Positions 24,998 to 40,234 of a stretch of 64,000 bases of DNA are shown piece by piece. The stretch is from Nitrospirales bacterium (GTDB lineage: Bacteria > Nitrospirota > Nitrospiria > Nitrospirales > UBA8639): NCBI GenBank assembly GCA_963422365.1, contig OY729426.1:2176001-2240000 (forward strand), given 5' to 3'. The translations under genes were made by a program, and so were the position numbers. The notes below the pieces were generated by a model. The model was not told the origin of the DNA, did no database searches, and worked only from the letters and a program-made list of their open reading frames with translations. Within the stretch, counting starts at the first letter, position 1. The number at the start of each line of letters is the position of its first letter.

Positions 24998-25088
24998 GGA
25001 GAGGTGGCCGAGCGGCCGAAGGCAACGGTTTGCTAAACCGTCGTAGGCTAACCCCCTACCGCGGGTTCAAATCCCGCCCTCTCCGCCA
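24998..25088 (+). tRNA. tRNA-Ser(GCT)
   Basis: GGAGAGG/CCTCTCC acceptor stem, anticodon loop TTGCTAA, long variable arm, GGTTCAAATCC T-loop and encoded CCA. Confidence 0.95.
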
Positions 25089-34282: not shown

Positions 34283-35122
34283 TCAACCTCTATTCGCAAC
34301 ATGCCGTCTGTTGGCTTCGGGTGGTGCAGTCTCCTTGATTTCATAAGCCTTCGCATACTTTCCAAAGGTGTGAAAACCCGCAAACATCGCCGCAATCAAG
34401 CCAGGCAGTCCATCTTTCCATCCTTGTCGGAGGATCAAGGTCTTGATGATGATCCAAATATGATGGCCAAAAAGATTCATGAACGTGACTTCCCGAAGAG
34501 TTTTTAATTTTTCTCGAGCAGCCAATGACGTATATTGCATCATTTTTCGAACATGATGCGTAATCGTGGGCACAGAATGATGGTCTAAAAGCCCGCGAAG
34601 ATCCCCAATGTCTCCCTTAAGCTCTAGATTTTCATGCAGCAACGTATCATCATATCGACCCATGTCTTTTCGAAATAAGCGAACCTGAAGGTCAGGAAAC
34701 ATCCCTCCATGCTTCATCCACTGTCCGTAGAAAAAATTTCGTCGAGCAACTCGGTACCCTACGATATGTGGCTCTTGTCCGTTTTTTTTAAGGCCTTGAA
34801 TCTCGTCACGCAAACTATCGGTCACACGTTCATCCGCATCCACAATAAATATCCAATTGCCTCGAGCCCGTTGGATCGCAAAGTTTTTTTGAGGCCCAAA
34901 TCCTTTCCATGGCTCAATAAAAATTCGCTCCGTGAATTCTTGAGCCTTTTCCACGGTTGAATCGGTACTTTCGGAATCCACGATTATGATTTCATCGACC
35001 CACTTGAGGCTATCCAGACAGTTACGAATATTCTGTTCCTCATTTTTGGTGATGACGATACCAGTCAGAAAATTGGAATCTACACAACCCTTGTGTTCGA
35101 CGTCCATAGTTTGTGTGCTCAC
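34283..35122 (-). CDS. GT2, LPS core beta-1,4-glucosyltransferase (WaaE/KdtX-like)
   Basis: 'ITKNEEQNI', 'VDSESTDST', 'GFGPQKNFAI', 'VDADER' and 'LHE'. Confidence 0.88.
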   Translation of the reverse strand: MSTQTMDVEHKGCVDSNFLTGIVITKNEEQNIRNCLDSLKWVDEIIIVDSESTDSTVEKAQEFTERIFIEPWKGFGPQKNFAIQRARGNWIFIVDADERVTDSLRDEIQGLKKNGQEPHIVGYRVARRNFFYGQWMKHGGMFPDLQVRLFRKDMGRYDDTLLHENLELKGDIGDLRGLLDHHSVPTITHHVRKMMQYTSLAAREKLKTLREVTFMNLFGHHIWIIIKTLILRQGWKDGLPGLIAAMFAGFHTFGKYAKAYEIKETAPPEANRRHVANRG

Positions 35123-35729
35123 CCTTGAAACCCGTGAGTCAAAATTTCTTTATAAAATCTTGGATTGAACCACCGATTTCGTCTCGGACGAAGCGGAGTT
35201 TTTGATGCTATTCGGCTTTGCATGACCTGAGGATGCGTCCCTCTGTAGCCTTTAAGAATATCATATGTCGGACAATATCGGGAATGATTTGCCTCTTTCA
35301 ATGCAGTTTTCTGCATAGACAGTCTTCCCTCACCTTCGTGCCGACTCACTTGGTATTGCAATTTTTGTTGCAAGACCTTGGGATCTTTGACCCATCCGTC
35401 ATGAAACACCCTTGCCTTGATGAGTCGTCCATACAGACCAGATTTGATCATTCGCTGTCTCTTACCTTTGGGCAAAGAATCGCAGCCATCGGTCGCTGAA
35501 TACACCCCGCAATGATTACGGATAATCTGTGTGGCCTTTCTGTACATCCACGGGTCTATACTCCAATAGTCCCCCTTCAACTGGACCATTTTGAACACCA
35601 ATCCCAACACCTCTGGATGCCCCAGGTATCGCTCCATCGCATTCTGAATTTCCGGATAATTTTCTTCATGCAACACTTCGTCACCTTGCACGAATAAGGC
35701 CCAATCACCGGTGCAATGAGATAAGGCAC
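35119..35729 (-). pseudogene. 3' part of a GT2 gene split by the 35730-39927 element
   Basis: ALSHCTGDWALFVQGDEVLHE... joins in frame with the 5' part at 39928-40170. Confidence 0.85.
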
Positions 35730-36223
35730 TGACGGCGGATGAAAATAAATGGGAATGGGATGAAGCGGGACAGGGGTTAAACAAATCAAGGAGTTAGGAG
35801 GGTCTTTTTCTCCATCGTGCGGCGGCGGAAAATAATGAGGAATTTTCGAACAGGTGGGCGAAACAGGGGAGAAATCGGACAATTTCCCCCCTCCACAGGG
35901 GTGTGGCACGTCGGGGGATTTTCGGGAGAGAGAGTCCCCCCTCTGGTCATTGAGAGGCTACCCAGAGGATCTCCGCCGGGCGCACCCAGAGCACCCGGGC
36001 CGTGTTGTCCATCACGACGACGCGCTGCGAGGGGAGCTGGAGGAGCCGACGCCACAGGGCGAGGATCTGCTTCTCGCCTCTCATCACATAACACGCTCGC
36101 CCTGTTCATCCGCTCATGCTTCCCTCCTTTCAGACCCACAAACAAAAAACATAGAGAAATTACCAACGCCTCAGCCGACACTCAGCCAGTCCAGCCCGTC
36201 CCGCCGTCGGGCTCCCCCTTCCC

Positions 36224-36252
36224 TTGACAGGCGCCCGTCCCCCGGGTATGCT
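36224..36252 (+). promoter_or_regulatory. Sigma70-type promoter convergent on the MuF gene
   Basis: TTGACA (36224-29), a 17-bp spacer, TATGCT (36247-52) in otherwise very GC-rich DNA. Confidence 0.75.
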
Positions 36253-36258
36253 CCTTGT

Positions 36259-36325
36259 GGGGCTGGAGCCAATTTCGCTTGTCCCGGTTTCGGCCGCGCG
36301 TGAGGGTAGCGACTCACCCAGCCCC
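36259..36325 (+). ncRNA. Candidate 67-nt cloverleaf-like small RNA
   Basis: Closing stem GGGGCTGG/CCAGCCCC with inner hairpins AGC-CAATTTC-GCT, CGGT-TTCG-GCCG and GTGAG-GGTAGCGA-CTCAC. It starts 7 nt after the -10 box. Confidence 0.55.
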
Positions 36326-36326
36326 C

Positions 36327-37607
36327 TCAGTCTTCCCCGAGCCTCCTCGCCGGGTTGAGCCGCAAGCGCCGCAGGTCGCTCGGTTTGATCCTTCCCAGAC
36401 TCGTCAGATACGTCTCGTGCCAATCCTGCGTGACCTTCACGGCGACGCGCCACACACGCCCCTCCTCATTGAAGACCCCCACGAGCACCCGATCCAACCG
36501 TCGTCCGGTTTGGCGATTGACCCCAGAGAACCACTCCCCCTCATCCAGGATCTTCTGCACCCGGGCGTAATCCGTGGGTGCCACATCGGGGTGGCCGGGG
36601 ATCCCCGGGATGCGCCCGGCCTGTTTCTCTGCGGTCCAGGGGGAGAGCCGCACCGTCCGGGACAGGCCCCCGAGGGTCTGCTGCACCGCCGGCGGCAGCA
36701 CTGCCACGGGCCAATCGCCCATCGGCCCCGCCCCGGCGTCAGCCTCAGGCCGTCGGGTCCCTGAGGGCGGATGCAAGAATTGCCGGAACACCGCCCCGCC
36801 CCAGGGCTGCCCGATAGCCGCCTGCGCCAGGGCCGCGGGCGCCGCGTCCAACCGGCCGATAAACTGATCCGCCACCGCCCGATCCACCTGGGCCCGGCCC
36901 ACGTGATGCGCCCACCCGGGCTCAAGGCCCACGGGCACCTGCGTCACCCGGCCCGTGCGGCGATTCTGCCAGGGCACCCGGCGCTCGGAGCCCGCCGGGG
37001 GGCCGTCGGCCACCCGATAGCCGTGGCTCGCGAGGTCGGCCGCATCCAGTTGCTGGACCAGGCAGCGACAGTTCCAGCCGTTGGGCGGGTAATGGGTCTG
37101 CCACCAGGGATCGTCCACCGGCAGCACCGTGCCATGCCAGGCCGCGTGCGCGGGCCGGGTGCGGCCGTCCAACACCGCCACGTACCGGAGATACGGCAGC
37201 TCGGCTTTGACCCGGTCGATGCGAGCCCAGCGGCCGGCGCTATAGGCGGTGGCGAGATTGGTGCGGAAGATGGTGCGCAGGCGGGCGAGGCTGCCGAGTG
37301 TCACCCGCCGGGGCGTGCCCGTCAGGGGATCGGGCTGCCACTGCTGGCCCCACCAGCCCTTGCGCACTAGGAGCGGCTCGAGGGCGTCCTGGAAGTGAGA
37401 CAGCGTGGTGCCCTCTGCGAGCGCCGCGTCGACGGCCACGCGCACGTCCTGCAATAGATCGAGTTGCAGCATTTTCGCGACCGTAAAGCTGCGCACGTGC
37501 AGGGCCGCGTCGGTGTCCCGCCAGTCGAAGCCCACGTGAAAGCCCTTGGCCCGGAAATGGTCGACGGCCTCGGCGGCGGGCAGATTGAGAATCTCCGGGT
37601 CAGGCAT
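36327..37607 (-). CDS. Phage Mu F-like head morphogenesis protein with a C-terminal PBECR-like nuclease/toxin domain
   Basis: 'RLRTIFRTNLATAYSAGRW', 'YVAVLDGRTRPAH' and 'WWQTHYPPNGWNCRC' (MuF). The tail reads 'KQ...HPDVAPTDYARVQKILDEG...WRVAVKVTQDWHETYLTSL'. Start set at ATG 37607. Confidence 0.85.
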   Translation of the reverse strand: MPDPEILNLPAAEAVDHFRAKGFHVGFDWRDTDAALHVRSFTVAKMLQLDLLQDVRVAVDAALAEGTTLSHFQDALEPLLVRKGWWGQQWQPDPLTGTPRRVTLGSLARLRTIFRTNLATAYSAGRWARIDRVKAELPYLRYVAVLDGRTRPAHAAWHGTVLPVDDPWWQTHYPPNGWNCRCLVQQLDAADLASHGYRVADGPPAGSERRVPWQNRRTGRVTQVPVGLEPGWAHHVGRAQVDRAVADQFIGRLDAAPAALAQAAIGQPWGGAVFRQFLHPPSGTRRPEADAGAGPMGDWPVAVLPPAVQQTLGGLSRTVRLSPWTAEKQAGRIPGIPGHPDVAPTDYARVQKILDEGEWFSGVNRQTGRRLDRVLVGVFNEEGRVWRVAVKVTQDWHETYLTSLGRIKPSDLRRLRLNPARRLGED

Positions 37608-37620
37608 CAGTCCGTTGGGT

Positions 37621-37656
37621 CCCTCACCCCCAGCCCCTCTCCCAGAGGGAGCGGGA
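37621..37656. repeat. REP-like palindrome (CCCTCACCC..CTCTCCC..GGGAG.GGG)
   Basis: Related copies at 37983-38017 and 42374-42411. Confidence 0.6.
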
Positions 37657-37725
37657 GAAAGAAGGGGGACGCTGCCGCGGGTCGGCCGCGAGGCGGCAGC
37701 CCCCGTGCCCAGCCGGTGCAAGGGC

Positions 37726-39120
37726 TCATCCTGAGGCCTCCGGGGGGTCCGCGGCTCCCGACAGGTCGGCAGCAAATCCGGTCCGGTGCAGGCGCTGCGT
37801 CACAGGGTCGACGGCCGCCTCACCGCCCGGCCCCTGCTCCAGTGCGGCGCTCACCGCCGCCAGAGACGTGGCTTGGCCGACGACCTCGCGCACCGGGGCG
37901 ACCACGGGCTCCAGCAGCGGCTCCCAGTCATCCAGGATCGCGGAGGTGGCGGCCTCCAGGGTGGCGTCGGTGGCCCGGGCTGCCCTCACCCCGGGGCTCT
38001 CCCGTGAGGAGAGGGGGCGAAGAGGGAGCGAGTGGGCGGCGAGCGTCACCGGTGCGCCCGGAGCGGGCGCCGGAGTGCCGGCGTGGGCGGGCGTCTCCAC
38101 CCACTCGCCGCCGTAGACCGATTGCACGTGGGCGAGCGTCGGGCGCCGCCCGGCGGTGCGGGCCACGATCTCCTCGCGCACGGCCCGGGCATCGAGATCC
38201 TCCGGCGGGGCGGCATCGCGGTGCAGCCGCGGCACGGCCGCCCCCGGCCAATTCCAGGCCGCCCACCAGCGCACCACGGAGGTATTGAGGGCTGCGTCCA
38301 GTAGCCGGCAGTCGGCTTCGACGGTCTCGTCGCGTACATCTTTTTGGACCTCCGCGGTGCCCCGCCAGGGGCCTTGGTCGGTGGTCGAGGATTGGCCGAG
38401 GATGCGCCGGGTGATCGCCCGATCCCAATACTCGATATAGGCCAGGTGGCTGCCCTCCGAGCGCCGCACGGCCTCTAAGAGCTCGATCGATTGGTCCTCG
38501 GGGATGGCGACGCCGGAGGCCCCCGCCAGGTCGCGGAGTAGCCCCAGCAGCCGATCCACCTCGGCCTGGTCGGCCCCCCGGCGATACGTGGCCTTCGCCG
38601 TCGGGGTCCCAAATTTTTCAAGTGCCGTGGCCCAAAATTTGACCCCGAGGCGCTTGAGCTCCACGGGCCAATAGCACCAGCGGGCCAGGCCGACCCCGTG
38701 CGGCACGTCGCCGTGCTCCCCCGGGCGGGCGAGCAGGACAAATTTGTGCGGCGGCACGGGCACGCCCTGAGGCGCCGCTTCGGTGCGCAGAGCCAGGTCG
38801 CCCCGGGCATCCCAGCAGAAGCGATCCGGTGCGCGGACCCTCAGGGCGGCCAGATGCACGCCGGCGGCAGAGGGCTGCCAGACGGCCTCGGCCACGGCGT
38901 AGCCATACCAGACGGCGTAGAGCAGTCGCCGGCACACGAGATCGAGATCGAGCGCCTGGAGTTCGTCGCGCAGGGCCTCAGCGGCGCGCCGATCCCGCCG
39001 CCGCTCCCCCCCGGGCTCCACGGCCCAGGACTTGGCCACGGCGGCGTCGAGCCGCTGGTCCAGCGCACTCGCCACCCGCTCGTCCCGAAGTACCTCGCGG
39101 TACAGCCGCAGGGAGGCCAG
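37726..39120 (-). CDS. Mu gp29-like portal protein (DUF935), probably 5'-truncated
   Basis: 'LRLYREVLRDERVASALDQR', 'AVWYGYAVAE', 'PHGVGLARWCYWP', 'FWATALEKFGTP' and 'ILGQSSTT'. Homology extends upstream of the called GTG without a clear start. Confidence 0.8.
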   Translation of the reverse strand: MASLRLYREVLRDERVASALDQRLDAAVAKSWAVEPGGERRRDRRAAEALRDELQALDLDLVCRRLLYAVWYGYAVAEAVWQPSAAGVHLAALRVRAPDRFCWDARGDLALRTEAAPQGVPVPPHKFVLLARPGEHGDVPHGVGLARWCYWPVELKRLGVKFWATALEKFGTPTAKATYRRGADQAEVDRLLGLLRDLAGASGVAIPEDQSIELLEAVRRSEGSHLAYIEYWDRAITRRILGQSSTTDQGPWRGTAEVQKDVRDETVEADCRLLDAALNTSVVRWWAAWNWPGAAVPRLHRDAAPPEDLDARAVREEIVARTAGRRPTLAHVQSVYGGEWVETPAHAGTPAPAPGAPVTLAAHSLPLRPLSSRESPGVRAARATDATLEAATSAILDDWEPLLEPVVAPVREVVGQATSLAAVSAALEQGPGGEAAVDPVTQRLHRTGFAADLSGAADPPEASG

Positions 39121-39176
39121 GTCGTCTCGCGGCAGCGTCCTGGGGAAGGGAGAAGCCGTGATGATGAGCAGGGCGC

Positions 39177-39317
39177 CTAGAGCCAGAAGTAATCCAGCAG
39201 GAGGGTGAGCCCGGCGAGCACCGCCACCGGCACCAGCACCAGGCCGAGGGGGAGCATCACGCCGGCGAGGAGGACAAATTTCAGCAGATCCCAGAGGGTG
39301 TCTTCTTGAATATCCAT
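39177..39317 (-). CDS. 46-aa hydrophobic membrane peptide
   Basis: MDIQEDTLWDLLKFVLLAGVMLPLGLVLVPVAVLAGLTLLLDYFWL, translated by hand. Confidence 0.4.
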   Translation of the reverse strand: MDIQEDTLWDLLKFVLLAGVMLPLGLVLVPVAVLAGLTLLLDYFWL

Positions 39318-39337
39318 ACGTGAGCGGAGACTAGCAC

Positions 39338-39466
39338 ATGGCGGGGAGAGATCTCAAGCTCAGCCTGCGGATTGCCACGGAGCTCGGGCAGACGAGAGCC
39401 AAGCTCACTCGACTCGAGAGCGACCTGCGCGATCTCCGGCGGGTGAGGGTCAGTAGATGGTGTTGA
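39338..39466 (+). pseudogene. Short tape-measure-protein-like N-terminal fragment
   Basis: MAGRDLKLSLRIATELGQTRAKLTRLE..., a paralog of the 39628 fragment. Confidence 0.45.
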
Positions 39467-39569
39467 TGAGGGCGACGAGGCCGGCCAGCAGCAGCCCACA
39501 GACGGCAGCGGGGCCGAAGATGCCCACCACAAAGAAGAGGACCCACTCTCGAAACGTCCCATGATCCAT
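39450..39569 (-). CDS. 39-aa hydrophobic membrane peptide
   Basis: MDHGTFREWVLFFVVGIFGPAAVCGLLLAGLVALINTIY. Confidence 0.4.
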   Translation of the reverse strand: MDHGTFREWVLFFVVGIFGPAAVCGLLLAGLVALINTIY

Positions 39570-39627
39570 ACCCAACAGGATACCACGGCCGCGAGGGGGC
39601 GTCAAGCCCTCGGAGGAGATCGGAGCC

Positions 39628-39875
39628 ATGGCTAGAGACCTCAGGCTCGCGTTGCGGATCCAGGCCGACCTCGGGCAGACGCCCGAGCGGCTCAACAGGC
39701 TCAAAGGGCAGCTCGGAGGGGTGGCCGGTGGCGCCAACGCCATCAGACGGCAGAGCGGCCCGGCCGCGAGGGGGCTCCGGTCGCTCGGCACGGCCGCCCG
39801 TGACGCCGTCCTCCTCTTCGGGCGGGCTGGGGCCACCCTCTTCGTACCCCACAGCGCCACCCGCGGTCTCTACGT
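39628..39875 (+). pseudogene. Tape-measure-protein-like N-terminal fragment truncated at the element end
   Basis: MARDLRLALRIQADLGQ... is an Ala/Gly-rich start typical of tape measure proteins and runs into the terminal repeat. Confidence 0.5.
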
Positions 39876-39927
39876 ATTCACTCGTAAGACTTTTCTAGCC
39901 ATTCCTAATTATTTTCGTTCGGCTACA

Positions 39928-40170
39928 GGCAATATCCTGTTGTATGCTGAATATTTCTCCCTTTACGCACAAATCCTCATCTCATTCCGTCTCAATGATC
40001 CTAATCTTCTGTGACCCGATCGACCGAATACGTTCCAGGGTATCGTCTTCGGAGTGCCCGACGTTGACGATACACTCATCCACAAGTGGCAACGCTGACG
40101 TAATGGCTTCAACGATCGGAAAGTCGTATTGAATGGCATTCCGCATGAATGTCAACCCGCTGACGTTCAT
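39928..40170 (-). pseudogene. 5' part of the split GT2 gene
   Basis: MNVSGLTFMRNAIQYDFPIVEAITSALPLVDE...KIRIIETE*DEDLCVKGEIFSIQQDIA, with a TGA at 39982-84 where Trp is expected. Confidence 0.85.
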
Positions 40171-40234
40171 ACACTCAACTTCCTGATTTTGTTGAAAATC
40201 TGAAGACTCAACAATCTCTCTGAAATTCATTTGT

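Follow-up and report, generated by a model that had tools for sequence, protein, structure and literature searches.

A tRNA-shaped RNA gene converges on the nuclease-like tail of phage MuF proteins and is lost with its catalytic histidine

The stretch analyzed here, referred to as the window, is a 64,000-nucleotide (nt) segment of a Nitrospirales bacterium genome (contig OY729426.1, positions 2,176,001 to 2,240,000). It contains a gene for a MuF minor head protein of a Mu-like phage (36327..37607, minus strand) and, facing it on the plus strand, a predicted 67-nt RNA with its own promoter (36259..36325). Comparison of the sequences of many phage relatives indicates that such an RNA goes with an intact active site in the C-terminal tail of MuF, and that the RNA and the catalytic histidine are lost together repeatedly. 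The pairing of RNA and nuclease-like tail is real, widespread and apparently undescribed. Our proposal for its function, which we hold about as readily as we doubt it, is that the tail is an RNase and that the tRNA-shaped RNA binds it as a substrate-mimic inhibitor, replacing a protein immunity gene.

The MuF tail and the facing RNA

The MuF gene, which matches phrog_220 (minor head protein and DNA pilot), is an intact open reading frame (ORF) of 426 amino acids (aa). Its MuF domain (aa 53-184; Phage_Mu_F, E 4.8e-25) is followed by a C-terminal extension, of which the last 142 aa (36330..36755, minus strand) directly precede the stop codon at 36327-36329. This tail has the topology of the colicin-like, PBECR-like group of the BECR fold, a pre-alpha helix and a second helix, then a four-stranded meander. 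It also keeps K44, Q45, H55 and a Thr/Ser in the terminal strand, matching the BECR pattern of a His combined with a Lys in the pre-alpha element and a Ser/Thr in the last strand. The closest solved folds are the colicin D and CdiA-CT tRNases (PDB 5znm, 1tfk, 5i4q); the Pfam scan gave no ToxN-like or HEPN match, and the best folds were BECR. The first-pass annotation had called the tail a PBECR-type RNase. The fold class supports this, but none of the Pfam families PBECR1-5 and MuF_C reached its cut-off: PBECR3 matched one of 31 tail homologues with E 0.016, and two members of the branch matched it below the cut-off. The tail is predicted to be a PBECR/colicin-like endoribonuclease, probably a tRNase. 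The window copy carries a Gly where at least 90% of close homologues have a His (family His121).

With its MuF domain, C-terminal tail and an upstream portal gene in a temperate phage head module, the gene has the composition of a MuF polymorphic toxin. As the first-pass annotation had noted, no credible immunity ORF follows it; the same-strand ORFs scanned downstream (35789-36181) were without a Pfam match.

What does lie beyond the MuF gene is the near-consensus plus-strand promoter described earlier, with a -35 box TTGACA (36224..36229), a 17-bp spacer and a -10 box TATGCT (36247..36252). It scores 10/12 and is the sole plus-strand site in 35000-38500, an interval with three sites on both strands together, against 0.5+/-0.7 in shuffled sequence. 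The RNA begins, again as previously described, with an 8-bp closing stem (36259-66/36318-25) that ends at 36325, next to the MuF stop. Within it lie a UUCG hairpin (36285-96) and a last hairpin (36300-17) that is stacked on the closing stem. No intrinsic terminator was found 3' of the RNA.

The minimum-energy fold of the exact 67-mer is a cloverleaf (-28.1 kcal/mol), with pair probabilities of 0.96-1.0 for the closing stem, 0.68 for the last hairpin and about 0.5 each for the UUCG hairpin and a first, AGC/GCT hairpin. The energy is no better than chance on either strand (z = -1.4 on plus, -1.6 on minus), and when a few flanking bases are added another fold beats the cloverleaf. It is comparison with relatives, and not energy, that establishes the predicted structure. 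This comparison upholds the closing stem, the UUCG hairpin and the last hairpin of the cloverleaf first proposed. The AGC/GCT hairpin is doubtful, because relatives keep the AG after the closing stem as a linker, giving the hairpin no comparative support, and because these nucleotides are able instead to form with the last loop a candidate loop-loop kiss (36275-79 with 36308-12, UCGCU with AGCGA). The RNA is not recognizable as a tRNA: ARAGORN gave no match, the Rfam search suggested by the first-pass annotation found nothing at the window locus, and covariance-model score, anticodon loop and T-loop are all lacking.

Conservation of the RNA and its link to the active site

A model was built from 12 close relatives. 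In their alignment, which was made from sequence only, pairing in the closing stem and last hairpin reaches 86%, with both-side changes in nine of 13 pairs; none of 500 shuffles reached the score, a statistic that ignores relatedness. The model matches exactly four places in the source genome, namely the locus in the window and three further MuF-tail remnants whose ORFs are broken. Each of these sister remnants has a convergent TTGAY box (TTGATA and TTGACG occur at the place of the window's TTGACA) and an RNA that differs in sequence and has the same shape. Two of the three have a decayed -10 box; among the four, only the window copy has an unbroken ORF, and its promoter is the best.

A sister subfamily gives the full cloverleaf. 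Among 85 non-redundant sequences of its 100 members, each of the 14 strongest covarying column pairs is a helix pair, and several lie beyond the structure of the model. The kiss between first and last loops is 98.2% paired, with compensatory changes in four of its five pairs, although the search pattern had fixed part of one kissing loop. In the window's own subfamily the 5-bp kiss has p = 0.06, and the pseudoknot there is suggestive. In 56 of 71 sister-subfamily loci a -10 box has the expected spacing (shuffles give 13, the opposite strand 10), and at 29 of these 56 it is joined by a -35 box. On the antisense strand, the fitted alignment carries 99 G-U against 29 A-C pairings, an excess not seen in the small subfamily of the window (6 against 9 A-C). 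Thus both the structure, with its compensatory changes, and the convergent promoter are conserved beside homologues, as the first-pass annotation had anticipated. The two subfamily models do not detect each other's members, and the class is therefore defined by topology and position. Three relatives, in a MuF_C-like branch, have a true T-loop; two in this branch score 25-26 bits as tRNA-Sec (cut-off 47).

The association with the nuclease was measured in 249 loci, which yielded 238 MuF ORFs in 123 clusters. An RNA detector set in advance (-10 box, closing stem and abutting hairpin; threshold at least 11) was positive in 23 of the 120 clusters having enough flank, all of them long-tailed and none tail-less. 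A second, independent measure was the gap between the MuF gene (F) and gene G, in the 46 loci with G within 400 nt. The gap was at least 87 nt in all 24 loci whose tails keep the His and in the single Arg-type tail, and at most 22 nt in all seven His-lost tails and all 14 tail-less MuFs. In the 24 His-kept loci it is filled (87-272 nt) by the RNA gene and its promoter, whereas F-G junctions without an active tail showed no RNA element. Phages Mu and DMS3 are among the His-lost cases, and their F and G genes overlap. The association would explain why F and G abut in Mu, where the domain is dead, when many relatives have a gap of 90-270 nt.

Mapped onto a quickly built tree of 86 tails, the His-lost label required 10 changes, at least six of them forced by well-supported branches, the labels having been set from the alignment after the flanks were known and two rows having been moved by hand. 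Sister pairs in which the His and the RNA are kept or lost jointly are L055/L059, L074/L132, L137/Mu and L146/L145+L165.

The reverse test started from the RNA. Of at least 120 viral matches, 80 were taken, and 75 of these face a tail of the same branch, in a few cases across intervening frameshifts or insertions; the other five comprise one PBECR2-like tail, three loci with too little flank and one without a tail. Among 67 non-duplicate tails facing the RNA, the His is present in 56, and 11 have an Arg-type segment. In this RNA-keeping Arg-type branch (L282, L287, L297, L302, L311, L318, L334, L343, L345, L352 and L047) the His is replaced by an Arg-Gly/Asp-Gln segment, which is perhaps an Arg-type PBECR site. 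In one intact-looking tail the RNA has been destroyed by IS insertions; the same genome holds a near-identical paralogue with an intact RNA gene. At L281 a sister-subfamily RNA is an orphan, with no adjoining nuclease gene.

Other tail branches were also surveyed. The MuF loci L196 and L185 have, antisense to the ORF and within it (238 and 248 nt inside the stop), a -10 box with a closing stem, just after an LPD3 or PBECR3 domain that has further coding sequence behind it. This was seen in two of the 16 loci checked, with chance matches elsewhere, and such an RNA gene may be embedded in genes for polyvalent proteins. Eight PBECR2 loci (L042, L046, L065, L071, L171, L175, L211, L228) and four of other PBECR branches (L198, L222, L227, L248) have a -10 box in convergent orientation and, behind the gene, a structured stretch whose shape is different; by eye, none was seen at the degenerate PBECR2-like tails L178, L183, L188, L189, L200, L209, L216 and L238. 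Two alphaproteobacterial metagenome-assembled genomes hold about nine and about 20 near-identical Mu-like MuF loci (L085-L115), with HEXXH-type tails and an adjacent small ORF in place of the RNA.

Proposed function and alternative explanations

Because the RNA is lost with the active-site residue across many phages, it probably acts as an antidote. That the tail belongs to a group of tRNA-cutting enzymes, and that the RNA is shaped like a tRNA with neither a true anticodon loop nor a CCA, suggests a substrate-mimic inhibitor. In this model the PBECR/colicin-like tail, likely a tRNase, would be carried by MuF, a head protein of Mu-like phages, while the convergent gene would be transcribed from its housekeeping (sigma-70) promoter, so that lysogens would contain the RNA, as would cells in lytic growth. 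Its stacked closing stem and last hairpin, together with an elbow formed by loop-loop pairing and no true anticodon loop or encoded CCA, would let it occupy the nuclease as a mimic of its substrate and stand in for the immunity gene, coding for a protein, that other MuF toxins have. The producer, and lysogens struck by a sibling virion, would be spared poisoning; once delivered to a naive cell, the RNase would be unblocked. The module would then probably work like a type III toxin-antitoxin system.

Temperate phages commonly have PBECR tails, and the missing partner of these tails is named by a conserved RNA gene that follows their catalytic residue. If the RNA does inhibit, RNA antitoxins would reach beyond the ToxN and AbiF folds to virion-carried, tRNase-type toxins, and tRNA mimicry would be an immunity strategy. 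A more ambitious claim, toward which we lean slightly less than away, is that phage-borne PBECR RNases form a large undescribed toxin class in which immunity comes from a tRNA-mimic RNA with a convergent promoter of its own. Neither a polymorphic toxin delivered by virions nor the colicin-D/RelE fold would have had an RNA as immunity factor before. As a substrate mimic that resists cleavage, the RNA would make lysogens immune to sibling virions, be shed whenever the nuclease is inactivated (gp30 of phage Mu being an example) and, where proteins have several domains, be hidden antisense inside the coding sequence.

The co-loss alone fits an inhibitor, a processed partner or cargo, or a cis-antisense RNA equally well. 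A U-tract (at least five T in the next 8 nt) follows only 15 of 84 RNAs and an encoded CCA only six of 84, so that some nuclease must form the 3' end. It is thus conceivable, though unlikely, that the RNA is the working product and that the nuclease matures or carries it as a tRNA-like decoy or ribonucleoprotein cargo, perhaps packaged by MuF, directed for example at host anticodon nucleases or other RNA-based defence. In the same spirit, Iyer et al. 2017 (PMC5512222) argue that host tRNA may be left alone by PBECRs and that their action may be directed against the host's RNA-based defence. On the other side, a housekeeping promoter opposing the late operon suggests that the RNA is made in the lysogen, as in immunity, and no variable guide segment is evident in RNA alignment A7.

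Several type I toxin-antitoxin systems have a convergent layout, and the RNA or its read-through might likewise pair with the late mRNA, across the F-G gap and the end of muF, and lower MuF synthesis. Perfect complementarity is automatic here, there is no terminator, and at some loci the closing stem extends into the coding end of muF. We nevertheless consider cis-antisense control distinctly improbable: it needs no conserved loops or tertiary kiss, yet both are conserved in distant phages, and the kiss would mask the very loops that seed pairing. Control at the level of mRNA would also give no guard against protein in head assembly or delivered by a virion.

That the RNA is a decayed relic, derived from a tRNA or an integration site and now carried without function as a passenger beside a non-toxic RNA-binding tail, might be read from the weak tRNA-Sec scores of two relatives and from the broken ORFs in three of the four source-genome copies; compensatory changes in every helix, retention of the promoter across many lineages and repeated co-loss with the His make this very improbable and largely refute it for the RNA family as a whole. 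Hardly credible is an element acting on the mRNA strand (between F and G, a terminator, an RNase structure or one that controls translation) beside an incidental promoter, since, although the minus strand folds about equally well and the window's subfamily has no G-U bias, the -10 box is antisense, the G-U excess lies on that strand and the element is absent from junctions without an active tail.

For the window copy itself, the whole ORF, the best promoter of the four and a host operon that appears to read towards the module on the minus strand lead us to predict that it could still be active. The earlier suggestion that addiction explains the survival of the remnant is weak: three sister copies with broken ORFs also retain the module, so addiction is not needed, and the window tail has Gly at His121.

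Genomic setting and comparison with known systems

The module lies in an internally deleted transposable prophage of 4198 bp (35730..39927), with a GC content of 0.6-0.77 against 0.45 in its flanks, within an LPS-type gene cluster. TG...CA ends and a 5-bp target duplication are hallmarks of Mu-type transposition. The element has such ends, flanked by GGCAC (35725..35729, plus strand) and GGCAA (39928..39932, plus strand), which differ by one mismatch, and by these marks and the empty site in its kin it is a mini-Mu. It splits a minus-strand host glycosyltransferase gene into a 3' half (35119..35724) and a 5' half (39928..40230, which also has a Trp-to-stop change); the halves are continuous in the intact G180 homologue, and in three same-genus genomes aligned across the site the gene is whole and the site empty. 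A short-read contig (three runs, one study) spans 34800-39631 with zero differences, and the sequence there is therefore real.

The mini-Mu retains, besides the intact MuF gene, a Mu-type portal gene directly upstream (37726..39075, minus strand; Portal_Mu E 1.4e-81, phrog_113). Short palindromic insertions lie between the two genes (37610-37725, recurring elsewhere in the source genome) and inside the portal gene (about 37985-38030). The right end occurs in at least seven copies in the 2.5-Mb source genome, each with different flanks (contig positions 890751, 1002737, 1077390, 1741431, 1767089, 2196269, which is about 20269 in the window, and 2215927), with a variant at 2092050. These remnants, at least seven in number, have this transposase-binding end in common; four carry the tail and RNA, and others hold tail-fibre or tape-measure fragments. 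Elsewhere in the window, 24998-25088 is an ordinary tRNA-Ser(GCT).

In the literature searched, which was mostly open-access and did not cover the supplements of Iyer et al. 2017, Jamet et al. 2017 and a 2026 preprint, we found no description of the module. For the PBECR and MuF-C domains of polyvalent and MuF proteins, the main text of Iyer et al. (PMC5512222) describes no partner RNA and contains the word 'noncoding' 0 times; the window's tail branch itself falls outside the Pfam PBECR families. The account of MuF polymorphic toxins in Jamet et al. 2017 (PMC5576092) has them thought to travel in the head, usually with a small immunity ORF behind, and leaves proteobacterial MuF extensions (Ct_MAD and others) unexplained. 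Our module resembles these toxins in its MuF N-terminus, variable tail and temperate phage head module, and differs in having a convergent RNA gene in place of the immunity ORF. Colicin D and the CdiA-CT tRNases share the colicin-like BECR topology of the tail, but have protein immunity factors and bacterial export, whereas the tail here sits on a phage head protein.

The type III systems (ToxIN, CptIN, TenpIN, AbiF) are alike in placing a predicted RNase toxin beside a structured noncoding RNA, with protein binding as the presumed mode of action; their pseudoknot has its counterpart in the kiss, clear in the sister subfamily and suggestive in that of the window. As set out for these families (PMC12283969; 10.1101/2025.04.15.648962), tandem RNA repeats lie upstream and are co-transcribed with a ToxN-like or AbiF toxin. 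This layout, with its intervening terminator, is not that of our module, in which a single-copy RNA lies downstream on the opposite strand with its own promoter, the putative toxin is, by its best fold matches, of BECR rather than ToxN or HEPN type and fused to a virion protein, and the RNA is a tRNA-like four-way junction. With tRNAs and tRNA-like RNAs (Rfam CL00001) the RNA shares the cloverleaf, the last arm on the closing stem, the contact between first and last loops and, in three relatives, the true T-loop; it differs in its anticodon arm, reduced to a short loop, its missing CCA and Rfam or ARAGORN match, and its elbow, which in most members is made of Watson-Crick pairs. Overall, these differences set the module apart from any known type III family, from a standard MuF toxin-immunity pair and from a tRNA.
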